Shown here one piece after another: positions 5,301-62,568 of a stretch of 64,000 bases of DNA. A program made the position numbers and the translations under genes. This stretch comes from Mustelus asterias (Eukaryota). Each line of letters begins with the position of its first letter. Positions within the stretch are counted from its first letter, which is position 1. The DNA lies in contig NW_027590151.1 of assembly GCF_964213995.1 (NCBI RefSeq), positions 620,001-684,000 of the forward strand, in the 5' to 3' direction. The notes beneath the pieces were generated by a model that was given only the letters and a program-made list of their open reading frames with translations, did no database searches and had not been told where the DNA came from.

Positions 5301-6765
5301 TCACTCTTTAATTAACTTCACAATCCGAGTAAATGGAAATTTCACCAGCTTCTTCAGATCCTTTCTGAATTGTGTCTGGGTCACTGCATAAATGCATGTG
5401 TTGGTGCAGCAACTCAGGAGTTGAAGCATAAATCCCAGTTCGATTACACACCCAGGTATGTAGAAAATGATTACACGTAAATCATACAATCGTAGACAAA
5501 AAGAACTGAACAGGTACACTGACCATAACAGGATAAAATTTGCAGATAGAGAAAACAGTAAGATGATAGATTTCCTTCGCTTCTCTATCTCTGGGTCAGT
5601 TGCAATCTCGCCACTCGTGGGGCTCCGAAATCTCTTGCGGATTTTGCTCGACATTAGAATATGTTTAACGGTTAAAACATTGAGCAGCAGAATCAACAAG
5701 AAAGGAACAAACGGTGTTAAAATATAATGTAGATTTTCAACTGCTCCCCATATTGGTGAATTCCTGACATCTGAAAGTACAGAACAAAAATAAGGAGAAT
5801 TTGCAAACAAATATGTATCCTCACACATGAAGTACCAGAAAGTGTTCTTTACACTGAACAGCACACTCACTGTTCCGAGAACCACAGCTGCCGTTTTCTC
5901 GGTGCAGTATTTTATTTTCAGCTTCTGCCAGGTAATGGCCACGAATCGATCAAAGGTGAACGTGACAGTAAACCAAACAGAACAATCAGTGACAGCATAA
6001 AGCAGGACGGCATGGATATTACACACTTTAATATTATAGACGAATAGAAATTGATCACTAAAAATGATAGGAATTTGCCTCAACATGAGATCAATGATGA
6101 CGACCAGCAGATCTGCCGCTGACATGGAGATTAGGTAACGTGTGACACATTTGGAAAGTCCACATCTTCCTCGAGACAGTATAAGAATCGTTATTAAGTT
6201 CACTGTAAGGAAGAGAGACACAATTAACTCACATTTCAGACTGAAAACAGGAGCAGTGGTCTGTCAGGATTCTATGGAACAGCTGCAGCATTTTTACAGA
6301 ATCAGCCGAAGAATAAAATTGATTTATCTGTTCTGCTGAGACAGGGTGTACAGTCATAAAGCACTGCACTGATGTAGCAAGAAACCAGATTCACCAACAG
6401 ATCTGATCTCCAAGGCAGCAAAGAAGCCGGCAGAGATGGGGAACGAATGGGGTGATCAAGGAGATGGGGTGGGGGGGATGTTGGCAGAGAGGGGGAAGGG
6501 AAGGAAATAGAGTGCAACCACCAGGCGCGAGTAGGGAGAATGGCTGCCGGGAGGAGAGAGAAATCTTCCAACTGCATTAGCACATAAGGAACATAACGTT
6601 TGCAAATAATAATATTATTAAGTGCTTTTCATGGACACGGGCAATAACCGGAGTGAAATTAGACTCACCAGTCACACCAACTGCAGCGAGGAGTGGGTAG
6701 TAAGTCCTTTGGATATCGCGAAGTACCCAAATTATACGAAGCTCAAGTGGAACAACCCAGAACAT
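5301..6765 (-). CDS. Class A orphan GPCR, GPR139-like, two exons (6765-6669 and 6202-5301), 332 aa
   Basis: Exon 1 MFWVVP...YYPLLAAVGVT ends G/GTGAG. Exon 2 follows a cttacAG acceptor and continues VNLITILILSRGRCGLSKC. It has hydrophobic TM segments, ADLLV (TM2), FTFDRF (TM3) and NTCIY (TM7). Splice phases match and the frame is intact (999 nt). Confidence 0.88.
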
Positions 6766-15059: not shown

Positions 15060-16085
15060 TACAAGGATGGTCTCTTTCCGAATGTTCATAATTAAAAGGC
15101 AGCTTTCCCCAGGAGATGGCTGACATTTAAGGGGACAGTAAATGAATATAGGACAGAGATATGTCTCGTGTTATTATATGGTACACAGATTAGTTACATT
15201 ATTTATGTTTCTGTAATAAAATATATTTATTATTATTTCTTGCATTGTAATATAATGCAGCAGCGATGTTATACATTTCCAGTCATAAAGTTGTTACAGC
15301 ACAGAAGGAATCCATTCGGTAACTCGAGTCCATGCCCACTCTCTGTATAACATTCCAGTCCCATTCCCACTCTATATCCCATTCTCCTGAAAGTTTATTT
15401 CCATCAAGTGCCCATCCACTTTCATTTTTAAATAGAATCCATAGATATGGATGGAGATTTACAACTTTTTGGGAATGAAATAGGAAAGAATGTTCCAGAG
15501 AAACTAGAATTGTCTGCTCTGAATTTCTATCCTATACTGACTGTGATGACTTTTGCAAACTCATTTCACAGGATTTTGAACGAGGAATCACAGGCAAAAA
15601 TCTCAACCGTCACGTCTAGACAGAGTCATATTCCTTGGGATCTGAATATCTTGTAATATGGAACTGTAGCTACGTTATATATTTCCAGACATCTCTTTCC
15701 TCAGAGGGTTGTGAGTCTTTTGGATTTCTCTTCCAAAGGGACCAGTGGAGGCTGAGGATCATTGAATATATTCCAGTTAGACAGATCTTTGACTGACAAG
15801 GGTGTCAAGGATTATGGGGAACAGACAAGGATGTGGTAAAGCTTTGGAATTCTCAACCCCTGAGGACAGTGAAACCTCAGTCATCAACTATTTTCAAGAG
15901 GGCGATTGATTGGTTTCTAGATATTGAGGATATCAAGGGATATGGGTTCAGTGTGGGGAGAATAATGCTGAGGTAGATGAACGAATTATCTCCCTGAATA
16001 GTTTAAAAGGCTCGATGGGCCAAATGGCCGACTGCAGCTCCTATTTGTTATGGTCTCTGTGTCCAGGACAGGAAGCAGTGAGCAA
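15060..16085 (+). pseudogene. Relic of a C2H2-ZNF gene 5' region, with no finger array
   Basis: Paralogous to about 59620-59980 and 60480-60950. It contains the ZNF acceptor module (cacAG/GATTTTGAA at 15571) and a truncated copy of the conserved GACAGGAAGCAGTGAGCA exon. Confidence 0.75.
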
Positions 16086-16269
16086 TAGATAACGCAAAAC
16101 TGTTTCAATCAGTAGAATATTCGCTAATCCAAATACGCCAGTCTAAGAGAAGGAAAGGCATTGAATGATCGTGTTCACTTGTTGCACTGCCAGTTGTTCA
16201 AAGCTGGAAACACACTGCCTAAAATGGTGGCAGAATATTAAACATAAATATTTAGAAGGAAATTGTATG

Positions 16270-18820
16270 TAACAGACCACCCAACAGCTCACGGGAAGTG
16301 GAGGAAAGGATATGTCAGGAGATTCTGGATAGGTGCAGAAAACATAGGGCTGTTGTAGTGGGGGACTTTAATTTCCCTGGCACAGACTGGAAAGTGCTTA
16401 GAGCTGGGGGACCGGACGGGGAGGAATTTGTAAAATGCGTACTGGAAGGTTCTTTGGAACAGTATGTAGATAGCCCGACTAGAGAGGGGGCTATACTGGA
16501 CCTAGTTCTGGGAAATGAGCCCGGTCAGGTCGTCAAAGTTTCGGTAGGGGAACATGTGGCAAATAGTGACCACAACTCTATTAACTTTAGGATAGTAATG
16601 GACAAGGATGAGTGCTGTCCTACGGGCAGGGTGCTAAATTGGGGGAAGGCTGACTATAGCCGGATTAGGCAGGAATTGGTGGATGTTGATTGGGAGAGGA
16701 TGTTCGAGGGTAAGTCCGCGTCTGGCATGTGGGAGTCTTTTAAGGAACTATTGATAAGGCTGCAGGATAGGCATGTGCCTGTAAAAAGGAAAGATAGGAA
16801 AGGTAGGATTCGAGAGCCGTGGATAACCAGGGAAATTGAGGATCTGATTAAAATGAAAAGGGCGGCGGACGTCAAGTCCAGGCAACTGAAAACAGATGGA
16901 GCTCTGGAGGAATACAGAGAGAGTAGGAAAGATCTCAAACGGGGAGTTAGAAGGGCAAAAAGAGGTCACGAGATGTTCTTGGCAGGCAGGATTAAGGAGA
17001 ATCCTAAGGCATTCTATTCATACGTTAGGAACAAAAGAGTTGTCAGGGAGAAAATCGGACCTCTCAGGGACAAAGGAGGGGAATTATGTTTAGAACCCAA
17101 GGGAATAGGGGAGATCCTAAATGAATACTTTGCATCGGTATTCACGAAGGAGAGGGGCGTGTTAACCGGGAGTGTCTCGGAGGGAGGTGTTGACCCGTTA
17201 GAGAAAATCTCCATTACAAGAGAGGAAGTGTTAGGTTTTTTAGGGAACATTAAAACTGACAAAGCCCCAGGGCCTGATGGCACCTATCCTCGACTGCTCA
17301 GGGAGACGAGAGGTGAAATTGCTGGGCCTCTGACGGAAATCTTTGTCACTTCTTTGGACACGGGTGAGGTCCCTGAGGATTGGAGGATAGTGAATGTGGT
17401 CCCGTTGTTTAAGAAGGGTAGCAGGGATAACCCAGGAAATTATAGGCCGGTGAGCTTGACATCCGTGGTAGGAAAGTTGTTGGAGAGGATTCTTAGAGAC
17501 AGGATGTATGTGCATTTAGAACGGAACAATCTCATTAGTGACAGACAGCATGGTTTTGTAAGAGGGAGGTCGTGCCTTACAAATTTGGTGGAGTTTTTTG
17601 AGGAAGTGACAAAAACGGTTGATGAAGGAAGGGCCGTGGATGTCGTCTATATGGATTTCAGTAAGGCATTTGACAAAGTCCCACATGGCAGGTTGGTTAA
17701 GAAGGTTAAGGCTCATGGGGTACAAGGAGAAGTGGCTAGATGGGTGGAGAACTGGCTTGGCCATAGGAGACAGAGGGTAGTGGTTGAAGGGTCTTTTTCC
17801 GGCTGGAGGTCTGTGACCAGTGGTGTTCCGCAGGGCTCTGTACTGGGACCTCTGCTATTTGTGATATATATAAATGATTTGGAAGAAGGTGTAACTGGTG
17901 TAATCAGCAAGTTTGCGGATGACACGAAGATGGCTGGAATTGCGGATAGCGAAGAGCATTGTCGGGCAATACAGCAGGATATAGATAGGCTGGAAAATTG
18001 GGCGGAGAGGTGGCAGATGGAATTTAATCCGGATAAATGCGAAGTGATGCATTTTGGAAGAAATAATGTAGGGAGGAGTTATACAATAAATGGCAGAGTC
18101 ATCAGGAGTATAGAAACACAGAGGGACCTAGGTGTGCAAGTCCACAAATCCTTGAACGTGGCAACACAGGTGGAGAAGGTGGTGAAGAAGGCATATGGTA
18201 TGCTTGCCTCTATAGGACGGGGTATAGAGTATAAAAGCTGGAGTCTGATGATGCAGCTGTATAGAACGCTGGTTAGGCCACATTTGGAGTACTGCGTCCA
18301 GTTCTGGTCGCCGCACTACCAGAAGGACGTGGAGGCATTGGAGAGAGTGCAGAGAAGGTTTACCAGGATGTTGCCTGGTATGGAGGGTCTTAGCTATGAG
18401 GAGAGATTGGGTAGACTGGGGTTGTTCTCCTTGGAAAGACGGAGAATGAGGGGAGATTTAATAGAGGTATACAAGATTATGAAGGGTATAGATAGGGTGA
18501 ACAGTGGGAAGCTTTTTCCCAGGTCGGAGGTGACGATCACGAGGGGTCACGGGCTCAAGCTGAGAGGGGCGAAGTATAACTCAGACATCAGACGGACGTT
18601 TTTTACACAGAGGGTGGTGGGGGCCTGGAATGCGCTGCCAAGTAGGGTGGTGGAGGCAGGCACGCTGACATCGTTTAAGACTTACCTGGATAGTCACATG
18701 AGCAGCCTGGGAATGGAGGGATACAAACGATTGGTCTAGTTGGACCAAGGAGCGGCACAGGTTTGGAGGGCCGAAGGGCCTGTTTCCTGTGCTGTACTGT
18801 TCTTTGTTCTTTGTTCTTTG
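16270..18820 (+). mobile_element. Young 5'-truncated CR1 LINE with an uninterrupted ORF2 remnant (16298-18739, 813 aa; partial APE plus RT)
   Basis: APE motifs GDFN and SDHN; RT motifs YMDFSKAFD, GVPQGS and FADD; (TTCTTTG)n tail. Confidence 0.95.
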
Positions 18821-29297: not shown

Positions 29298-31790
29298 CTC
29301 ATGTACAGATAGTTGCACCCATCATGATGCTTTCCAAAACTCCTTACCTACCATCCTTGGGCTTTCTTTGTACTGAGATTCCCTTCGTTTGAAAAGGGGT
29401 GGATTAAAAGTTCTCAAAATTAGTTTTTTTTAAAGTTTATTTATTTGTCACAAGTAAGGCTTGCATTAACGCTGCAATGAAGCTACTGTGAAATTCCCCC
29501 AGTTGCCACACTCCGGTGCCTGTTCAGGTCAATGCACCCTAACCAGCACGTCTTTCAGACTGAGAGAGGAAACCAGAGCAGCCGAAGGAAACCCAAGCAG
29601 ACACGGGGAGAATATGCAAACTCCACACAGACAGAGACCCAAGCCGGGAATCGAACCCGGGTCCCTGGCGCTGTGACGCAGCAGTGCTAAAAACTGTGCC
29701 ACCATGCCGTCACTGTCACTGTGCCACCATGGAGGTCAGCGCCCTTTCTTTGTTTTAATCTAATGACCACATGGTCTGGGAATCATTTCTATTTCATAAT
29801 TTCTCCTTTTCAACACTTTCCTTCAGTATCCAATTCCAGAATTTTCCTTTTCATTGTGTTAATTGCGTCAGGAATAAATCTTTGGATCCGACAGGAAGTT
29901 TAACTCAAGATCAATCCAACACAGGATTGGTCAGAATCATTTCACATGTCCCAAATTTTAAATAACCATTACAAATTAAAATTCTCATTCTCACGTGTGA
30001 ATTGTATCTGGATTGAAATTCCTGCATGTTTAGTAAACTATCCTGGAATCCTGTCTCTGGCCAGTAAATATGGTTCCAGGTTCATAACTTATGAAAAAAA
30101 GCTTTATTAATCACACTTACTTTTTTAAAATCTGTTTGATTTAAATCACAGACAGAAAGCCTCAAAGCTTGAAGCATTGAATCCATAAATATCATCCATA
30201 CACAAGCAGAGAAACTTAGCATGTGCTTTACAACAACAATAACCAGAATGAATTTCTTAAGCGTTCTTGTGGTTCTGCTTTTAAACTTCCAGAAATGCCT
30301 TTAATCAAAGACTCAAGATAAGGTTAATTTCCCAGAAAGATAAACCTTAACAAATGTAGCCCAAAACAATGATAAAACGCATCTACAAACATCCATAAAA
30401 CAAATGAAACATGCAGGTTCTCACAGCTTGTAAATTTCAAGCAATGAATCATCAGCATTCTCTCTCTCTCAGCTATAGCTTCTTAAAGCGACAGAGCACT
30501 ACAAGCTCACAACTCCTTGAATAAGATACAAGATCCTTCATTCTAACCGTTTTTAGCCAACTTCCAAGACCTGATTCATAGGCAAAATCGCAAACAAGTT
30601 GCCACCGGAAAAATCTTTGTTCTTTACCTGGGGTTGAGGTGACAACACGATAAAATTCTCAGTTATTCCAAATTCCTCCAGGCTATGCGTAAATTTCCAC
30701 ATTTAACTGGATCCCATAAATCCTCAATTATAAACTAAAATAGACAGATGAGTTTCTGAGTGATTTAAAAACAAATCAAATGTCTGCTGAAAGGATTCAC
30801 TTTTCTACAGAACCTAAAGGGGTGGGGAGTGAGCGGGAAAAACTTGGCACACAATTACGTCACTTTGTACAAGTTTAAAAAACTTCTCTATCAACCAAAC
30901 AAACTTGATTTTAAGCTTCATCTATTAATTTTTTGTTATTTTCCTCAACATAATTATTTTCATTTGATCAGTTTTTGTTAGGGATGGGTAACTTCTGTTC
31001 TTTATAAACTGGTTCACTCATTTTGTTTATTCTACATGGGCTCGGAGAATCAGAACCCAGACTTTATCATCCTGACCATTTTAGTCCTTTTGCCACCACT
31101 CCCACTGTTTTGCAGGAGGGTTGGGGGAATTCCAATCAGAACTAATCATTTTATCATAAAAGTTAAATACTGCAGACGCTGAAACAAAAACACAAAATGC
31201 TGGGAAATCTCAGCAGATCTGACAGCACCTGTGGAGAGAGAATAGAGCCAATGTTTCAAGACTGGATGACCCTTCATATGAGCTGTGATGAAGTATTATC
31301 CAGACTTGAAACGTTGGCTCTATTCCCTAATCACTTTATCAATAAATTTCTTGTTCTTAGTTTCCAAATGGCAGGTAAGAGACCGGTCCGCACTCGAGTT
31401 CTGATTTTTCACTGGCCATGCTTGGGTAAGATTATAACCATTAGTATCTACTCTGATGTCTGCTTTTCAGTCCAGTGCTACTTGGAGTATTCCATCACTT
31501 CGCTGACTATTGGATCACAAGTTCCTCACAGTTCTCATCACAAATTTATGATAAAATAATTTAAACAATGCCTGCGAACACTTCTTAGCTTCTTAACCAA
31601 CTGCTTATCACTGTTTGTAGATTTGTCAGGCCCCATTTTTACAGATTCAAGTATCTCAGCCATAGAACACCAGCTGTTGCTGGAAGAAGTTTAATTCTAA
31701 CTCATTCTGAGTAAATATTCTTACCAGGTCCTCTGTCAGGGCCCTGCTAAGCAGCTTTAATGGTCCGTGATTGCAGAAACTGAGCAGTCA

Positions 31791-34600
31791 AGAACAAAGA
31801 ACAGTACAGCACAGGAAACAGGCCCTTCGGCCCTCCAAGCCTGTGCCGCTCCTTGGTCCAACTAGACCAATCGTTTGTATCCCTCCATTCCCAGGCTGCT
31901 CATGTGACTATCCAGGTAAGTCTTAAACGATGTCAGCGTGCCTGCCTCCACCACCTTACTTGGCAGCGCATTCCAGGCCCCCACCACCCTCTGTGTAAAA
32001 AACGTCCCTCTGATGTCTGAGTTATACTTCGCCCCTCTCAGCTTGAGCCCGTGACCCCTCGTGATCGTCACCTCCGACCTGGGAAAAAGCTTCCCACTGT
32101 TCACCCTATCTATACCCTTCATAATCTTGTATACCTCTATTAGATCTCCCCTCATTCTCCGTCTTTCCAAGGAGAAGAACCCCAGTCTACCCAATCTCTC
32201 CTCATAGCTAAGACCCTCCATACCAGGCAACATCCTGGTAAACCTTCTCTGCACTCTCTCCAATGCCTCCACGTCCTTCTGGTAGTGCGGCGACCAGAAC
32301 TGGACGCAGTACTCCAAATGTGGCCTAACCAGCGTTCTATACAGCTGCATCATCAGACTCCAGCTTTTATACTCTATACCCCGTCCTATAAAGACAAGCA
32401 TACCATATGCCTTCTTCACCACCTTCTCCACCTGTGTTGCCACCTTCAAGGATTTGTGGACTTGCACACCTAGGTCCCTCTGTGTTTCTATACTCCCGAT
32501 GACTCTGCCATTTATTGTATAACTCCTCCCGACATTATTTCTTCCAAAATGCATCACTTCGCATTTATCCGGATTAAATTCCATCTGCCACCTCTCCGCC
32601 CAATTTTCCAGCCTATCTATATCCTGCTGTATTGCCCGACAATGCTCTTCGCTATCCGCAATTCCAGCCATCTTCGTGTCATCCGCAAACTTGCTGATTA
32701 CACCAGTTACACCTTCTTCCAAATCATTTATATATATCACAAATAGCAGAGGTCCCAGTACAGAGCCCTGCGGAATACCACTGGTCACAGACCTCCAGCC
32801 GGAAAAAGACCCTTCGACCACTACCCTCTGTCTCCTACTCAGTACATGACCCCTCTAAGTTGTCTACCCTCTGCACCGCGGTAATATGCTCCTTAACTAA
32901 TATCGCTACTCCCCCACCTTTTTTAGCCCCTCCTCTGTCTCGCCTAAAACACTTATACCCCGGAATATTCAGTTGCCAGTCCTGTCCTTCTTTTAACCAA
33001 GTTTCCGTCACCGCAACCACATCCAAATTCCGCACAAGCATTAAGGCCCTAAGTTCGTCTGTTTTACCCGTTACACTCCTCGCATTGAAGCAGATGCACT
33101 CCAGACCTCCAGGCCCAGTCAGGTCCTCCTCCTCCAGAGTGCTCCTCTTCTTAGCTAGCCTTGCCCTGGCCCCCAGCTCGACCCCAGCCTCAGTATTTAC
33201 TGACCTCCTGTTTTGTTCCCCACCCCCCTGCCACACTAGTTTAAATCCTGCCGAAACACTCTAGCAAAACTCCCAGCCAGGATATTTGCTCCCTTCCAGT
33301 TAAGGTGTAACCCATCCTTTCTGTACAGTTGCCATCCTGACTTGAAGATTTCGCAGTTATCTATGAATTTAAAACCCTCCCTCTTGCACCAGTCCTTTAG
33401 CCACGTGTTCAACTGTAGAATCTCCCTGTTCCGAGCCTCACTTGCACTCGGCACCGGGAGCAGTCCAGAGATTGCTACCCTGGAGGCCTTACTTTTTAGC
33501 CTAGCACCCAACTCCCTGAATTTCTCTCGTATGACCCCGCTGCTCTTCCTACCTACATCATTTCCCCCAATGTGTACAATCACATCCGTTTGACTCCCTT
33601 CCTTTTTAAATATGCTTCCTACCCTCTCGGAGACATCCAGTACCCCAGCACCAGGGAGGCAGACTACCATCCTGGATTCTCGTTCAGTCCCACAGAAGCG
33701 CCTGTCCATGCCTCTAACCATTGCGTCCCCCACAACTATCGCTCTCCTAAAACCCTTCTTTCCCTTCTGGACCCCTGAGCCTGTCTCCGTGGAGGCGATC
33801 TGGTCCTCGTGGCTTACCCCTGGAGGGTCATCCCCCTCCACAGAATCCAAAACAATATACCTATTTTGGAGGGGGACAACCACAGGGGATCCCTCCACAG
33901 ACTGCTTACTCCCTTCCCTTCTCCCATCTGTTGCCCATTCCTTTCTTTTATGGGAGACTGCCACTGGGGTACTTTCTGGCACATCACCCTTCTGACTATT
34001 ACCCCTCCTAACTGTGACCCACGTGTCTTCCTTCCGAGACCCTGGTGTCACTACCTGACTGTAACTTTTATCTATTACTCGCTCATTTTCCCTAACTAAA
34101 CTGAGTTTATCGAGCCTCAGCTCCAGCTCCCTTACACGATCCTTCAGGAGATGCAGTTCTACGCATCTGGCATAGATATGGACTTCCGGGAGGCAACTTG
34201 TCTCCAGGAACTCCCACATCCCACACCGAATGCAGTATACTGGCCTCCCACTCATATCAGCCATGTCCTTTTTAGTTTTGGGGATGAAACAAAAAGGGGG
34301 TGTAACCGAAGAAAAACAAACAAACAACCTTCCTCGCCTTCGCCGAAGCCCTGTGAGCCAAAGCCCTTTTAGCTCTCACTCTGTCCCCTGCTCACTCCGC
34401 TGCCCGCTAACGACGCTGCCCGCTCAAAGGTGCGGCCTACTTTTAAACCCTCCAAAACCTTCCCAGGCTGCTGCTGGGCCTATTTCCTGTTTAGAAAAAA
34501 AAACCTCCGATTTCTTTCACTAATTTAACTGAAAAAATAATTAAATAAATTCGTGCACACACAAGCTCCCTTACCCTCAGCCTGCTCCTGTGGAACAATG
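31791..34600 (-). mobile_element. CR1 LINE with 5' UTR, ORF1 and an internally deleted ORF2; TSD AGTCA
   Basis: TSD at 31786-31790 and 34601-34605. The empty site is present in the paralog at 55350-55354. The ORF2 APE N-terminus (33236-32835) is joined to the RT C-terminal part (32821-31862). Confidence 0.93.
33236..34264 (-). CDS. CR1 ORF1p: zinc-finger-like motif, coiled coil and SGNH esterase-like domain, 342 aa
   Basis: CxxC (YCIRCGMW), a leucine heptad, VVGDAMVRG, HIGGND and DGLHLN. Confidence 0.88.
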   Translation of the reverse strand: MADMSGRPVYCIRCGMWEFLETSCLPEVHIYARCVELHLLKDRVRELELRLDKLSLVRENERVIDKSYSQVVTPGSRKEDTWVTVRRGNSQKGDVPESTPVAVSHKRKEWATDGRREGSKQSVEGSPVVVPLQNRYIVLDSVEGDDPPGVSHEDQIASTETGSGVQKGKKGFRRAIVVGDAMVRGMDRRFCGTERESRMVVCLPGAGVLDVSERVGSIFKKEGSQTDVIVHIGGNDVGRKSSGVIREKFRELGARLKSKASRVAISGLLPVPSASEARNREILQLNTWLKDWCKREGFKFIDNCEIFKSGWQLYRKDGLHLNWKGANILAGSFARVFRQDLN

Positions 34601-35914: not shown

Positions 35915-36757
35915 TCACTCGTGAACTTGTTGGTGTCTCAGCAGCTGGGATGAAACTGTGAATCCCGTCCCACACTGAGAGCAGGTGAATGGCCTCTCCC
36001 CAGTGTGAACTCGCTGGTGTCTCAGCAGGACGGATGACCAAGTGAACCTCTTCCCACACTGAGAGCAGGTGAACGGTCTCTCTCCAGTGTGAACGCGCTT
36101 ATGTGCCCGCAGGTTGGATGACCGAGTGAATCCCTTCCCACACTGAGAGCAGGTGAATGGCCTCATCCCAGTGTGAACTCGCTGGTGTGTGCGCAGATTG
36201 GATGAATGACTGAATCCCTTCTCACACTGAGAGCAGGTGAATGGCCTCTCACCGGAGTGAAGTCGCTGGTGTGTCTGAAGGTTGGATAACCGACTGAACC
36301 CCTTCCCACACTGAGAGCAGGTGAATGGTCTCTCCCCTGTGTGAACTCGCTGGTGCGTCTGCAGGTGACATAACTGACTGAAACCCTTCCCACACTGAGA
36401 GCAGGTGAACGGCCTCTCACCAGCGTGAAGTCGTCGGTGTGTCTGAAGATTGGATAACCGACTGAAACCCTTCCCACACTGAGAGCAGGTGAAGGGCCTC
36501 TCCCCAGTGTGAACTCGCTGGTGTGTCTGCAGGGTGCATGACTGAGTGAATCCCTTCCCACACTGAGAGCAGGTGAAGGGCCTCTCCCCTGTGTGAACAC
36601 GCTGGTGTATCTGCAGCTGGAATAACCGAGTGAATCCCTTCCCACACTGAGAGCAGGTGAATGGTCTCTCCCCAGTGTGACTGCGCCGATGAGCTTCCAG
36701 CTCTGATGGGGATCTGTATCTCTTCCCACAGTCCCCACATTTCCATGGTTTCTCCAT
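35915..36757 (-). CDS. C2H2 zinc-finger protein ZNF-1, 10 fingers, 280 aa, no effector domain
   Basis: The first real ATG (GCACCATGG) gives MEKPWKC, followed by TGERPF-linked C-x2-C-x12-H-x3-H repeats. The exon acceptor is at 37110-37109. Confidence 0.88.
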
Positions 36758-37229
36758 GGTGCAGGTGTCCTTGCCTCTTTCTTGAGTGGACAATCAGTTG
36801 AAGCCTTGCCCACACACAGAACACGGGTACCGTCTCTCCCCGCTGTGAATGTTGTGATATTTATTCAGGCTGTGTAACTGGTTAAAGCTCTTCAGTCAGT
36901 GCACTGGAACACCCTCACTCGAGTGTGGCCGTGTGTTGGTGCTTTTCCAGTCACACTGACACTTGAAATCTTTTCAAATTGACAAACTGGACAACAATTT
37001 CTCCTTCTAGATTCAATGGCCGATGATATTCAGCTCCCAAGGAATATGACTCTGTCAGATCTAGATGGGACGTTTGAGATTTCGGCCTGTGATTCCTCTT
37101 TCAGTATCCTGTAAAACAAGTTTACAAAAGTCATCAGTGTCAGTACAGGATAGAAATTCAGAACACACAATTCTAGTTTCTATGGAACATTCTTTCCTCT
37201 CTCCAGACTCGAAACATTGGCTCTATTCT

Positions 37230-37710
37230 CTCTCTATCTTGGGGATAGCGTGGGAAATGATGCTGCAGTCGATCAGCCAATTCTCAATGAATGGTTGAGG
37301 CAGTTCGATGGGCTGAATGGCCAACTGCAGCTCCTGTTTCTTATGATTTGTGTGTGGTGGACAGGAAGCAGTGAGCATGGATCTGTCAATCAGCCTCAAT
37401 CAGCACCTTCAGGAGAATTGGGAGGGTGAATATTAGATACAGCAGAGTGAGAATGGAGGGAGAGTGTGTGGAATGAAGATTCACAGCTTTTGGGGAACGA
37501 GAGAGGAAAGAATGTTCATTAGAATCATAGAATTCTTACATCTTATCAACCGTCTCTGAGCCTTCACAATGAATCTCTCTTCTCAAGACACTCTTATCTC
37601 TGACTTGTCTGTGCTGCTCGCAGTCTCACAAAGCAGCTGCCTGTGTGTTGGTACAAGGGGCCCTGCTCGGCAAGTTTAATGCTCCATGACTGTGTCTTTA
37701 ATGACTGAAT
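37230..37710 (+). pseudogene. Orphan copy of the ZNF 5' module, paralog of 60820-61280, opposite in orientation to ZNF-1
   Basis: Contains the invariant 113-nt block at 37359-37471; no finger array follows. Confidence 0.8.
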
Positions 37711-45135: not shown

Positions 45136-45807
45136 AAAAGCAAATTACTGCGGATGCTGGAATCTGAAACCAAGAGAGAAAATGCTGGAAAATCTCAGCA
45201 GGTCTGGCAGCATCTGTAAGGAGAGAAAAGAGCTGATGTTTCTTGTCTAGATGACCCTTTGTCAAAGCTCTGAAACATCAGTTCTTTTCTCTCCATACAG
45301 CTGCTGCCAGACCTGCTGAGAATGGGGAGAGAGTGTGTGGGATGGAGATTTACAGCTTTTGGGGAATGAGAGAGGAAAGAATGTTCCATAGAAATTGTCT
45401 GTTCTGAATTTCTATCCTGTACTGACACTGATGACTTTTGGAAACTCATTTTACAGGATATTGAAAAAGGAATCACAGGCTGAAATCTCAAACGTCACGT
45501 CTCGATCTGACAGAGTCATATTCCTTGGGACCTCAATATCATCGGACTTTGAATCCAGAAGGAGAAATGATTGTCCAGTCTGTCGATTTGAAAAGATTTG
45601 AAATGTCAGTGTGAGTGAAAAAGCATCGACACACTGTCACACTTGAGTGAGAGTGTTCCAATGCACTGACTAAAGAGCTTTAACCAGTTACACAGTCTGA
45701 ATAAATATCACACCATTCACAGCGGGTAGAGACTGTAATCTTGTTCTGTGTGTGGACGAAGTTTCAACTAATTGTCCACCCAAGAGAGAGGCAAGGACAC
45801 CTGCACC

Positions 45808-46734
45808 ATGGAGAAACCATGGAAATGTGTGGACTGTGGAAAGGGATACAGAGCCCCATCAGAGCTGGAAGCTCATCGGCGCATCCACACCAGGGAGAGA
45901 CCATTCACCTGCTCTCAATGTGGGAAGGGATTCATTCAGTTATCCGACCTGCAGTCACACCAGCGAGTTCACACTGGGGAGAGACCATTCACCTGCTCTC
46001 AATGTGGGAAGGGATTCATTCAGTTATCCGACCTGCAGAGACACCAGCGAGTTCATACTGGGGAGAAACCATTTATCTGCTCTCACTGTGGGAAGGGGTT
46101 CACTCAGTTATCCAACCTGCAGAGACACCAGCGAGTTCACACTGGAGAGAGGTCATTCACCTGCTCTCAGTGTGGGAAGGGATTCACTCGGTTATCCCTT
46201 CTGCAGACACACCAGCAAGTTCACACTGGGGAAAGACCATTCACCTGCTCTCAGTGTGGGAAGGGATTCCCTCGGTTATCCCTCCTACAGACACACCAGC
46301 AAGTTCACACTGGGGAGAGACCATTCACCTGCTCTCAGTGTGGGAAGGGATTCACTCGGGTATCCAACCTGCGGGCACACCAGCGAGTTCACACTGGGGA
46401 GAGGCCATTCACCTGCTCCCAGTGTGGGAAGGGATTCACTCAGTTATCCAGCCTGCTGACACACCAGCGAGTTCACACTGGGGAGTGGCCATTCACCTGC
46501 TCTCAGTGTGAGAAGGGATTCACTCAGTTATCCAACTTGCAGACACACCAGCGAATTCACACTGTAGAGAAACCATTCACCTGCTCTCAGTGTGGAAAGG
46601 GATTCACTCGGTCATCCGACCTGCGGAGACACCAACGCATTCACACTGGGGAGAGGCCATTCACCTGCTCTGTGTGTGGGAAGGGTTTCAGCGTTTCATC
46701 CCGGCTGCTGAGACATCAACAAGTTCACGAGTGA
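45808..46734 (+). CDS. C2H2 zinc-finger protein ZNF-2, 11 fingers, 308 aa, no effector domain
   Basis: ATG in GCACCATGG giving MEKPWKC; exon acceptor ttacAG at 45455-45456; 3' UTR homologous to ZNF-1 and ZNF-3. Confidence 0.88.
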
Positions 46735-53090: not shown

Positions 53091-53251
53091 CACCCACGTT
53101 GGCAGCAAGTTCAGTATCATCATCAGTCACAACCTCCCCTGTATCTTCACTAACTGAAACAATCCATTTAAAACATTTTTAGTCGAGGAATGTAGCCATA
53201 TTTCTGTTAGGCCGGCATCCTGCATGGAGATTTCCAGCTGTGTGTGTCCAG

Positions 53252-54429
53252 GACAGGAAGCAGTGAGCATGGATCTGTCAATCAGCCTCAATCAGCACCT
53301 TCAGGAGAATTGGGAGGGTGAATATTAGATACAGCAGAGTGAGAATGGAGGGAGAGTGTGTGGGATGGAGATTCACAGCTTTTGGGGAATGAGAGAGGAA
53401 AGAATGTTCCATAGAAACTAGAATTGTTCTGAATTTCTATCCTGTAATGACACTGATCACTTTTGTAAACTCCTTTTACAGGATATTGGAAGGGGAGGAT
53501 TTACAGACATAAATCTCAAACCTAATGTCACATCAACATCTGACATCCTCACTCAATTCATCGGGATCTGAATATATCGATCTTTGATTCTCAAAGGAGA
53601 AATGTTTCCCTGTTCTGTCTGCTTCAAAAACTTTAATCATTTGTGTGACTGGAAAAGCACCAAGGCACAGATACACCCGAGTGAGAGTGTTCCAATGCAC
53701 TGAGAGTGGTAAGAGCTTTAACCAGTTACACTGCCTGAAAATACATCGCAGCATTCACAGCGGGGAGAGATTGTACCCGTGTTCTGTGTGAGATTTAACT
53801 GATTGTTTAACCTGGAGAGTCACAAGGATACCCACACCATGTAGAAAGCGTGGAAATGTGGGGACTGTGGGAAGGGATTCATATCCCCATCTCAGCTGCA
53901 AGCTCATCGACGCAGTCACACTGGAGAGAGACCATTCACTTGCTGTGTCTGTGGCAAGGGATTCAGTCAGTTATCGAATCTGCGGACACACCAGCGAGTT
54001 CACACTGGGGAGAGGCCTTTCACCTGCTCTCACTGTGGGGAGGGATTCACTTGGTTATCCAGCCTGCAGACACATCAGCAAGTTCATTCTGGCGAGAGAC
54101 CGTTCACCTGCTCTCAGTGTGGGAAGAGATTCACTCAGACATCCCACTTGCAAACACACCAGCGAGTTCACACTGGGGAGAGACCGTTCACCTGCTCTGT
54201 GTGTGGGAAGGGATTCACTGACTTATCCAGCCTGCGAGGATACCAGCGAGTTCACACCGGGGAGAAACCATTCACCTCATCTCAGTGTGGGGAGGGATTC
54301 ACTCAGTCATCCGCCCTGCGGAGACACCAGCGAGTTCACACTGGGGAGAGACCGTTCACCTGCTCTCAGTGTGGGAAGAGTTTCAGAGCTTCATCCACCT
54401 TGCTGAGACACCAACCAATTCACAAGTGA
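53252..54429 (+). pseudogene. C2H2-ZNF pseudogene ZNF-3 (66-nt exon 53252-53317; array 53839-54429, 7 fingers)
   Basis: The ATG at 53839 is immediately followed by TAG. Finger 5 has His>Tyr and finger 6 has Cys>Ser. Confidence 0.85.
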
Positions 54430-59041: not shown

Positions 59042-61710
59042 TTCAATTGAACAGCTTGGTGGGCTGAATTTCTAACTATTTCTTATGATCTGTCAGGAAC
59101 ATGAAATGGTGAGTGTCGATCAGCATTAATTAGCACCTTCAGGAGAATTGGGTAGTTTATATTATAGAACTCATAGAGACCCTACAGTGCAGAAGGAGGC
59201 CATTCGGCCCATCGAGTCTGCACCGACCACAATCCCACCCAGGCCCTACCCCCACATATTTACCCGCTAATCCACGCATCTCAGAACTCTAAGGGGCAAT
59301 TTTTAACCTGGCCAATCAACCTAACCCGCACATCTTTGGACTGTGGGAGGAAACCGGAGCACCCGGAGGAAACCCACGCAGACACGAGGAGAATGTGCAA
59401 ACTCCACACAGGCAGTGACCCAAGCCGGGAATCGAACCCAGGTCCCTGGAGCTGTGAAGCAGCAGTGCTAACCACTGTGCTACTGTGCCGCCCCTAAAGT
59501 TTAAAGTTTATTTATTAGTCACAAGTAAGGCTTATATTAACACTGCAATTTCTCTTAAAGACATTGACATCCTTTGCTCCCCCAGCTTGACACATTGATT
59601 TCTGGCTAAAAAGTCCCTTTCCTAATGTTCACAATTAAAGGGCTGGTTTCCTGAGGAGATGGCTGACATTTAAAAGAACAATAAATTAATATAGGACAGA
59701 GATATGCTTAGTGTTGTTATATTGTAGATTTGATATATTATTTATGGTTCTGTAACAAAGTACATTTATTATTATTTCTCGTTTTGTAATCTAACACTGA
59801 AGCTATGTTATATATTTTCATTCATCGAGTCATTACAGTGCAGGAGGAGTCCATTCAGTAACTCGAATCCATGCTGACTCTCTGTAGAACAATCCAGTCA
59901 GTCCCATTCCCTTTCTATATTCCCTTTCCCCTGCAACTTTATTTCCTTCATGCGCCCATCTAATTTCTGAAATATATTAAAGGGGACAGTAAACTAATAT
60001 CGGACAGAGACGTGTCTGATGTTTTTTTAATTCATCCTTGGGACACGGGCATTGCCGGCTGGGCCAGCATTTATTGCCCATCCCTAATTCCCCTTGAACT
60101 GAATGGCTCGCTCGGCCATTTCGGAGGATGGTTGAGAGTCAACCACATTGCTGTGGCTCTGGAGTCACATGTAGGCCAGACTGGGTAAGGACGGCAGATT
60201 TCCTTCCCTAAAGCACATTAATGAACCAGATGGGTTTTTTGGTCAATCGACAATTGTTTCATGGTCATCAGTAGATTCTTAGTTCTAGATTTTGTTTTTA
60301 AATTCAAGTTCCACCATCTGCCGTGGCAGGATTCGAACCTGGGTCCCCAGAACATCAGCTAAATTTCTGGATTAATAGTCTAGCGATAATACCACGAGGC
60401 TATCAGCTCCCCTGTTATATGGTACAGATTAGATATATTATTTATAGCTCTGTAATAAAATACACTTATTATATCTGGCTGTGTAATTTTGGACTACAGC
60501 TGTATTATATATTTCCAACAATCTCTTCCCTCAGAGAATTGTTAGTATCAAGATTTCTCTTCCATAGGGACCAGTGGAGGGATTGAATATATTCAAGGAT
60601 GAGTTAGACAGTGTTTGAATGACAAGGGAGTCAATAATTATTGGGAACAGGCTGGAAAATGGAGAGAAAGCTCAGGTGAGGAAGGATTTCTTCACTCAAG
60701 GATGTGGTGATGTTTTGGATTCTCTACCACAGAGGACTATAGAGCCTCAGTCATCAAAAATTTTCAAGAGAGGGATTGATAGGTTTCTAGATATTGAAGA
60801 TATCGATGGATGTGGGGGACAGTGTGGGGAAAATAATGCAGAGGTAGATCAACCAATAATCTGAATGAATGGTTGAGCAGACTCGATGGGCCGAATGCTG
60901 ACTGCAGCTCCTATTTGTTCTGATTTCTGTGCTGGACAGGAAGCAGTGAGCATGGATCTGTCAATCAGCCTCAATCAGCACCTTCAGGAGAATTGGGAGG
61001 GTGAATATTAGATACAGCAGAGTGAGAATGGAGGGAGAGTGTGTGGGATGGAGGTTCACAGCTTTTGGGGAATGGGAGAGGAAAGAATGTTCATTAGAAT
61101 CATAGAATTGCTGCATCTTATCAACCGTCCCTGAGCTTTCACAATGAATCCCACTTCTGAGGACACCCTTATCTCTGACTTGTCCGTACTGCTGGCAGTC
61201 TCACAAAGCAGCTGCCTGTGTGCTGATACGGGAGGCCCTGCTCGGCTAGTTTAATGCTTCATGACTGTGTCTCTAATGAATGCTCCATAGAAACTAGAAA
61301 TGTAGATTTAAATTTGGATCGTATTCTGAATTGCGATGTTTTTTCTAAATTGGCTTACAGGATATTAGACAAGGAGAAATCAGACAGAAATCTCCAACAT
61401 CACATCGAGATCTGACAGAGTGACTCGACTTCTTGGGACCTGAATATCATCGGCCTTTGAATCTAGCAGGAGAAATGTTTGTTTGGCCTCTTGGCTTCAA
61501 AGGATTGTAAACATCGCTGTGACTAGAAATGCAGTGAGATACACACACCCGAGTGAGAGTGTTCCAGTGCACTGAGTGTGGAAAGAGCTTTAACCAGTTA
61601 CACAGCCTGAAAATACATTGCAGCATTCACAGCGGGGAGAGACTGTACCCGTGTTCTGTGTGAGATTTAACTGATTGTTTAACCTGGAGAGTCACAAGGA
61701 CACCCGCACC

Positions 61711-62568
61711 ATGGAGAAACCATGGAAATGTGGGGACTGTGGAAAGGGATTCAGATACCCATCTGCACTGGAAATTCATCAACGCAGTCACACTGGGGAG
61801 AGACCATTCACCTGCTCTGTGTGTGGGAAGGGATTCAGTCAGTTATCCAGCCTGCAGACACACAATCTCGCTCACACCAATGAGAGACCGTTTAAATGCT
61901 CTGACTGTGGGAGCGGATTCAAAAGCTCTCAGGTACTGATGATGCACCAGCGCATTCACACTGAGGAGAGACCGTTCAGCTGCTCTCACTGCTCAAAGAG
62001 GTTTAGAACATCATACAACCTGCGGAAACACCAGCGAGTTCACACCGGGGAGAGACCATTCATCTGCTCTGTGTGTGGGAAGGGATTCATTCAGTCATCC
62101 AGCCTGCGGGAACACAATCTCACTCATACCAATGAGAGACCCTTTAAGTGCTGTGACTGTGGAAGTGGTTTTAAAAGCTCTCAGGATCTGGTGTCCCACC
62201 AGCGCATTCACACTGAGGAGAGACCGTTCAGCTGCTCTCACTGCACAAAGTGGTTTAGAAAAGCATACAACCTGCGGATACACCAGCGAGTTCACAACGG
62301 GGAGAAACCGTTCACCTGCTCCAATTGTGGGAAAGGATTCAATCAGTCTTCCAACTTGCTGAAACACCAGCGAGTTCACACTGGGGAGAGACTGTTCACC
62401 TGTTCCAATTGTGGGAAGGGATTCACTCAGTCATCCCATCTGCTGACGCACCAGCGCGTTCACACTGGGGAGAGGCCGTTCACCTGCTCTGTGTGTGGGA
62501 AGAGATTCACTCATTCATCGAACCTGCGCAGGCACAATCTCACTCACACCAAAGAGAGACCGTTTTAA
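61711..62568 (+). CDS. C2H2 zinc-finger protein ZNF-4, 10 fingers, 285 aa, followed by about 7 decayed fingers to 63126
   Basis: GCACCATGG start giving MEKPWKC. The stop arises from an extra T (CCGTTTTAAATG), and the downstream fingers carry stops and frameshifts. Acceptor at 61359-61360. Confidence 0.85.

Follow-up and report, generated by a model that had tools for sequence, protein, structure and literature searches.

A short exon–intron patch kept nearly uniform across a large ZNF gene family, probably by directional gene conversion

In the window, a 64-kb stretch of Mustelus asterias DNA, one ZNF gene unit is represented by four C2H2 arrays and a number of fragments. In the unit numbering, +1 is the first base of a putative 66-nt exon and corresponds to window position 53252. 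The features, among them three copies of a block that spans this exon and the start of the following intron, are located as follows.

16054–16084, plus strand: fragment of the block, truncated at +18; a long RT-like ORF (16256–18736) lies downstream of it
35918–37203, minus strand: ZNF gene with a 280-aa ORF; own block lost, homology to the family unit from +140
37359–37471, plus strand: block copy 1, exon-like 37360–37425 plus intron start; orphan, no AG
45317–46731, plus strand: ZNF gene with a 308-aa ORF; homology from +89, exon part of the block lost
53251–53363, plus strand: block copy 2, putative exon 53252–53317 flanked by AG/GT, uATG 53269–53271, intron 53318–53481
53333–53353, plus strand: least variable 21 nt (unit +82 to +102), intronic, purine-rich
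53374–53408, plus strand: right shoulder (+123 to +157), a mosaic zone with alleles common to unrelated lineages
53482–54426, plus strand: ZNF exon of copy 2, a pseudogene in which the ATG of the usual MEKPWK start is followed at once by TAG
59114–59152, plus strand: decayed copy whose older alleles are a CpG at +28/29, an A at +36, and a T at +42
60934–61046, plus strand: block copy 3, exon-like 60935–61000, no AG, repeat tail upstream
61711–62565, plus strand: ZNF ORF of copy 3, 285 aa from MEKPWK

As the initial annotation had claimed, the three block copies proved letter-identical by alignment over 113 nt, with the identity of the 53251/60934 pair extending to 120 nt; given the agreement of ~85% between the 37359 and 60934 copies beside the run, the chance of a 113-nt run is near 1e-8. 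The exon-like 66 nt (53252–53317) are followed by GT, and only the 53251 copy and the 16065 fragment carry AG at the exon start, also as annotated. The 21-nt motif of 53333–53353 recurs at 37441–37461 and 61016–61036, +123C is present in 3/3 copies, and the canonical exon 1 of the family adjoins none of them. Copy 1, correctly described as an orphan, belongs to an orphan subfamily (8/104 copies examined); it has no ZNF downstream on its strand, and is an inverted piece lying ~155 nt upstream of the minus-strand ZNF and pointing away from that gene at 37203. Further particulars of the annotation were likewise borne out: the ZNF of copy 2 is a pseudogene by virtue of the TAG after its ATG, the unit homology of the two ZNF genes said to have lost the block (35918–37203 and 45317–46731) begins only at +140 and +89, respectively, and the decayed copies placed near 16065 and 59095 correspond to the fragments at 16054–16084 and 59114–59152. 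The intron of copy 3 has an insertion of ~190 nt, and its acceptor is located at 61360. From the reported contrast between an identical block and differing flanks, the lower divergence of the block held, whereas the sharpness of its edges is partly an artefact, because upstream sequence has been inserted or replaced in all three window copies and the intron carries an insertion in two. As a separate observation, the region 35918–37707 has the form of a head-to-head fusion, in which the block-less ZNF faces the inverted 5′ piece of another subfamily, and this arrangement is itself duplicated (at least five copies in the sample).

The genome-wide search proposed in the initial annotation showed the words of the block (1,156–1,707 exact matches) to be far commoner than the adjacent ZNF-exon word: 31-mers gave 1,156 matches for the exon core, 1,518 for the intron core, 707 for +160 to +190, and 64 for the ZNF exon (+236 to +266), and the 21-mer at +82 to +102 gave 1,707, with 0 matches for reversed control words. 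Among the listed places, the matches cluster on several contigs. The analysed DNA amounted to 1.864 Mb including the window, picked non-randomly around listed matches and mostly in contiguous runs, and yielded 291 units, comprising 184 anchored at the ZNF acceptor, 134 with the full block, and 118 with both. An intact unit consists of a CpG-rich promoter-like region, with what we take to be CCAAT-, CRE-, and ETS-like words, and a donor near −183 that opens a short intron; then come the 66-nt exon, an intron of 168 nt, and the ZNF exon, in which the ORF starts from MEKPWK ~600 nt downstream. The block sits ~200–300 nt downstream of the canonical promoter-like region. Judging from the AG/GT borders and the conserved acceptor, the 66-nt exon is presumably spliced to the ZNF acceptor. 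AG is missing before the exon in 31/84 copies, and no exon-to-acceptor joint was seen in contigs of presumed RNA runs, which cover exon and intron alike and are weak evidence here, as such contigs cannot show absence.

Several different insertions, some with target-site duplications, are found at the left edge of the exon (unit −13 to +13, e.g., L046 and L099), and 17 junction classes fall in −25 to 0 against ~6 elsewhere, a modest excess in which several classes probably represent one event. In one unit (L019), the ZNF acceptor is itself the insertion point of an RT-like ORF, which extends a second frame of the block (frame 2) by 270 aa in silico. The units at C119:749–752 kb and C71:10.300–10.302 Mb are identical at all compared sites, through either very recent duplication or assembly redundancy.

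Divergence was measured in the 184 anchored units as the distance from the family majority, over homologous sequence only. It was 4.1% at −160 to −101, 10.1% at −100 to −41, and 7.5% at −40 to −1; within the block it was 4.7% (+1 to +17), 3.2% (+18 to +66), and 3.2% (+67 to +122), rising to 7.9% (+123 to +157), 8.7% (+158 to +200), and 13.3% (+201 to +234) on the right side and to 16–17% (+235 to +400), 6.2% (+441 to +480), and 13.7% (+481 to +600) on the side of the ZNF exon. Conservation therefore takes the form of a peak at about +13 to +122 with graded shoulders. Far from being no better kept than its flanks, the possibility raised against it at the outset, the block is 4–5 times less diverged than the distal flanks. 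Within the block, variability is lowest in a 21-nt trough (+82 to +102; p 0.001 against the remainder); a search for one decisive window, mutation of which would foretell decay, found none, all windows behaving alike. Two weaker islands were also noticed, at −160 to −101 (4%) in intron 1 and at +441 to +480 (6%; near window 53690–53730) among the degenerate fingers of the 5′ UTR, with few clade-fixed changes (0/299 and 5/222, respectively).

Most full copies (86/134) have at most two mismatches in +15 to +120, followed by a tail of decayed copies. The block stays at about 2% in pseudogene and orphan copies, and orphan copies 13–15% apart in their flanks differ at 1–5 of 110 block sites. The exon part is absent in 62/184 anchored units, many of which have long finger arrays, and what is left of their block is ~10% diverged. 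In four other organisms (D, E, F, and H, which may be close or distant relatives) the majority block is the same, without a majority difference in +1 to +122 and with one in organism D, at +128; high-depth contigs of these organisms run across the exon–intron junction with 0–1 differences. We do not take this identity across organisms to prove selection, since the majority letters of the flanks also largely match those of the present genome.

The alternative of gene conversion, which the initial annotation had offered beside nucleotide-level constraint, gained support from shared haplotypes, a chimera, and allele turnover across paralogues. In six clades of at least three copies, clade-derived majority changes numbered 1 in 726 clade-sites of the block versus 114 in 1,021 distal ones, and returns to the family majority numbered 10 at 8 sites in +123 to +157, 27 at 32 sites in −100 to −1, and 27 at 114 distal sites. 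The rare haplotype 138C/142A/144T is common to lineages 25% apart, three pairs of lineages have at least three rare alleles in common within +1 to +157, and a four-gamete conflict is present inside one young clade. One clean chimera (L148) switches parents within −1 to +158, the diagnostic sites dividing 18 vs 2 upstream, where it matches the orphan subfamily of the window, and 3 vs 15 downstream, where it matches another clade. In 17 independent young pairs, divergence was 4.0% distally, 1.4% (26/1863) in the block, and 6.7% in the right shoulder, the excess of the shoulder having a pooled p of 0.004 and a pair-wise Wilcoxon p of 0.19. Block divergence saturates, at 1.2–1.7% in young pairs and 3% in old ones. 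GC-biased transmission gave no signal, at low power, and a crossover hotspot at the block was discarded, with switches of 4/47 and 5/51 against 1/51 to 7/55 in control intervals.

The majority sequence of the patch itself appears to have turned over, a polarity that we infer from CpG decay and from the decayed copies. For this comparison, 13 lineages with at least nine block substitutions were taken, one per lineage; the set omits sister copies and copies with 7–8 substitutions, and the old alleles themselves slightly raise the count. These lineages share 38G (11/12), 36A (7/12), 29G (5/13), 70T (5/12), and 28T (4/13), each of which is found in at most 9% of 60 homogenised lineages (38G in 9%). 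At +28/29 the decayed lineages have CG, TG, or CA, like decaying CpGs of the flanks, and the homogenised lineages have CA in 54/60. No distal site has more than four carriers among the decayed lineages, which are scattered on the flank tree (FastTree; deep nodes poorly supported) and are not a clade. The word containing 38G has 92 copies genome-wide; 30 were examined, and the 23 of these with flanks fall into 19 lineages. While its distal divergence is the same, this independent sample is more diverged at +55 to +122 (95/1953 vs 55/1900, p 0.002). At the right edge, +123C is present in 51/129 full copies vs 4/34 truncated ones (p 0.002), its carriers are nearer the majority at +67 to +102 (0.29 vs 0.99, p 0.006), and 38G is rarer among them (4/51 vs 19/78), none of these three counts being lineage-corrected. 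Several young clades are also polymorphic for +123C. It has the look of the most recent allele, now spreading in copies that keep the block and only in those. An apparent chromosome restriction of +123C weakened with more data (C12, 0/7 and then 7/20).

On the whole, the block is the centre of a patch of ~110 nt found in >1,700 tandem C2H2 ZNF gene copies, and the uniformity of this patch is probably maintained by directional non-allelic gene conversion, with a dominant template that itself changes slowly as the donor. The family has radiated, with flanks drifting 13–17% from the majority while the patch stayed within about 1–3% in intact, pseudogene, and orphan copies alike. At the sequence level, paralogues exchange tracts in and beside the patch, and, with the polarity taken above, the patch majority has changed, copies that dropped out retaining older alleles and +123C spreading only among patch-keeping ones. 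The donors would have to be unequal, being one or a few templates or a constrained subset of the genes, because in a toy simulation of about 1,500 copies, conversion from equal donors fails to make them uniform. A copy that loses part of the patch would fall below the homology needed and escape. As a guess, the candidate triggers are breaks or R-loops in the promoter-proximal G-skewed stretch (on its sense strand, the intronic half of the block is 71% purine, with a G-skew of 0.79) or nicks made by retroelements at the left edge. The template may be held steady by selection on a cis-element, and in part it probably is.

The simulations comprised 1,500 copies, hand-set parameters, and 2–8 replicates. 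Master-donor models gave ~5 old-allele sites with a top share of ~0.9, as observed, whereas simulations of selection only, with or without weak conversion, matched the mean divergence and gave 0–1 shared old alleles with a top share of at most 0.38. The old-allele counts thus favour a dominant, partly constrained template, with an imperfect fit: the master models overshoot the divergence of young pairs (2.2–3.5% vs 1.4% observed) and clade fixation (0.004–0.014 vs 0.001 observed). No donor template was found, nor was a block-carrying mobile element among 104 copies, nine of which have no acceptor, eight of these being the orphans.

The rival that survives best, a possible though less persuasive reading, is that the block is a family-wide, orientation-independent cis-regulatory DNA element (a binding platform or enhancer) under purifying selection copy by copy, with conversion as a side effect of similarity. 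Its position downstream of the promoter-like region in intact copies, the 21-nt trough, which could be a binding site, the same majority sequence in four other organisms, and the inverted orphan block beside a ZNF without its own block all agree with such an element, and the selection-only simulation reproduces the mean divergence as well as the surplus of rare variants. Intact-looking genes are nearer the majority (0.71 mismatches, n=7, vs 2.66, n=35, p 0.03; 1.30 vs 2.33 for ORFs of at least five fingers), but the gap between intact and dead copies is absent in two other counts, one of them smaller. The minus strand of the block holds TGATTGACAG, presumably a PBX-TALE site, which speaks for the element; yet this decamer, like the ATG and the donor, is no less variable than its neighbours in 64 lineages. 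The many genes that have lost the exon part and the low divergence of pseudogene and orphan copies also count against it, and selection alone yields neither shared old alleles nor sweeps across lineages. Of the regulatory reading in the initial annotation there remains a possible contributor, in that selection on a cis-element may add to the conservation of the block; by itself, it does not explain the allele turnover.

Unbiased conversion, in which all copies are equal donors, has the observed exchange between paralogues in its favour and is nonetheless very improbable, because the equal-donor simulation, even with conversion set to 700 times the mutation rate, leaves the block 12–13% from the majority and with many intermediate-frequency variants, whereas the observed variants are mostly rare and the block genealogy in the sample is star-like. 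It is similarly hard to credit a local mutational cold spot, in which the lack of CpG or protection by chromatin slows change in a block that indeed contains no CpG: the contrast with the flanks persists without CpG sites (3% vs 12–16%) and for transversions, the same sequence is 10–20% diverged in decayed or truncated copies, which largely refutes a cold spot, and shared haplotypes and turnover would be left unexplained.

There is also very little to recommend the reading that the block is kept for a translated upstream ORF (uORF) or micropeptide (MDLSISLNQHLQENWEG...) or for its second frame, although several of the described features are real. The uATG has a strong Kozak context (A at −3, G at +4), it is present in 81/84 copies, and the frame is open for at least 17 codons in most; on in-silico splicing, the product is MDLSISLNQHLQENWEGY-stop with three window acceptors, ends in F-stop with a fifth, and is a 30-aa product with the acceptor belonging to the 53251 copy itself. 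The proposed constraint on this peptide was not borne out, the codon-position test being null, the ATG not below its neighbours, and the stop variable. In 72 copies, omega was 0.76 (p 0.53) for the uORF frame and 1.09 (p 0.89) for frame 2, with no codon periodicity; in 64 lineages, the ATG had undergone 4 events vs 3.9 expected, and the variability of ATG, Kozak context, and donor was not below the plateau rate. The stop is not conserved, the spliced uORF product ranges over 3–71 aa in 84 copies (a range independent of mis-spliced copies with intron insertions), and frame 2 always closes before the fingers in the same number of copies. Moreover, the intronic half is conserved at least as well as the exonic one and has the more exact matches, and the copies without AG, together with the missing spliced joint in presumed-RNA contigs (a weak point), do not suit a translated product. 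An effector-domain exon of the KRAB or FiNZ type was rejected, as the exon never joins the finger frame and shows no protein constraint, and a 41-aa frame on the acceptor side had no database protein match (a weak result). The suggestion of an RNA element found no support either: an Rfam search with the block returned no family (best E 1.1), and its predicted fold was not stable, being weaker than those of shuffles (z +1.1 to +1.7). At the start of the ZNF exon (53482–53850 and paralogues), a decayed frame (ILEGEDLQT...GEMF) followed by degenerate fingers was observed in phase with frame 2 of the block, which suggests an ancestral N-terminal coding region, broken in 84/84 copies.

Small conserved exons upstream of fingers are familiar from KRAB-ZNF genes, where they encode an in-frame domain. 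An expanded ZNF family of cyprinids, FiNZ-ZNF, likewise has a small conserved exon upstream of the finger-array exon, described in the accessible text of the source as encoding a domain in frame with the fingers (10.1101/2022.11.29.518450), unlike the block exon, which is without coding constraint; the word 'shark' is absent from the main text of that preprint. For the non-coding homology itself, the nearest parallel is the mouse V1R promoters, for whose homology peaks gene conversion homogenising the promoters is proposed, in the parts of the paper available (Stewart and Lane 2007, PMC1955453). Both are tandem gene families in which a continuous non-coding stretch close to the 5′ end is less diverged than its flanks; the V1R peaks are 500–1,000 bp, contain start sites, and are subfamily-specific in about 124 genes (PMC1955453), whereas the present patch is ~110 nt long, lies downstream of the presumed start, and is family-wide, with >1,700 copies on several contigs and sequential allele replacement.

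The NLR-B30.2 genes of zebrafish are, like the present family, a large clustered fish family in which conversion homogenises part of the gene and the rest escapes; in the available text it acts on coding domains within groups (10.1101/022061), and here on a short non-coding exon–intron patch without protein constraint. Non-allelic conversion between human duplicates similarly has short tracts and escape after divergence, and is described in the portions at hand as occurring in small families, GC-biased, and small in average effect (Harpak et al., 10.1101/135152; Fawcett and Innan, PMC3924837); here one island persists in a huge family, unequal donors are needed, and no GC bias is seen. Conversion between Alu elements or dispersed TE motifs shows a similarly partial, partly directional overwriting of dispersed homologues and has been proposed, again in the accessible text, as a route to change many binding sites together (PMC8230782, PMC6598467), although its substrate differs from the host genes affected here, among which no mobile element carrying the block was found. 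As to the involvement of PRDM9, a candidate factor, cartilaginous fish have PRDM9 orthologues with a weak or missing SSXRD, according to the available text (PMC5519329). A literature search, mainly of open-access main texts and including a term look-up in the text of PMC8455134, returned no description of the block element. SIGLEC11/16 may be a further related system.

The block is a real family-wide feature, and its concerted evolution is unusual in scale, narrowness, and visible sweeps. Conversion from duplicate to duplicate is normally small, transient, and confined to small families; a 110-nt island that stays uniform in >1,700 genes spread over several chromosomes, and in which successive sweeps can still be seen (+123 at about 40%, +38 nearly complete), would rank among the rare examples of molecular drive in progress. 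Two questions thereby become testable, namely how a ZNF family of this size, with no known effector domain, is co-regulated and on what donor dominance rests, and the island serves as a warning that near-invariance among paralogues, even with a strong-Kozak uORF inside, need not mean function. A more speculative extension, which we hold to be doubtful though conceivable, is that the ~2,000 ZNF genes carry a 'broadcast patch', a control element close to the promoter that a single master template keeps overwriting. In the same tentative proposal, the master would be either a dominant locus or the RNA of that locus, copied by the retroelements targeting these 5′ regions. If this were true, a single base change could sweep the whole family and re-tune all genes at once.

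Elsewhere in the window, an inverted pair of RT-like repeats (17764–18811 and 31790–32837) shows 98.9% identity over 1,048 nt. On the minus strand, an ORF at 1301–1834 resembles, by eye, what we take to be an antigen-receptor variable segment with a leader, and a 320-aa single-exon ORF at 5304–6263 is presumably, again by eye, like a rhodopsin-type GPCR.
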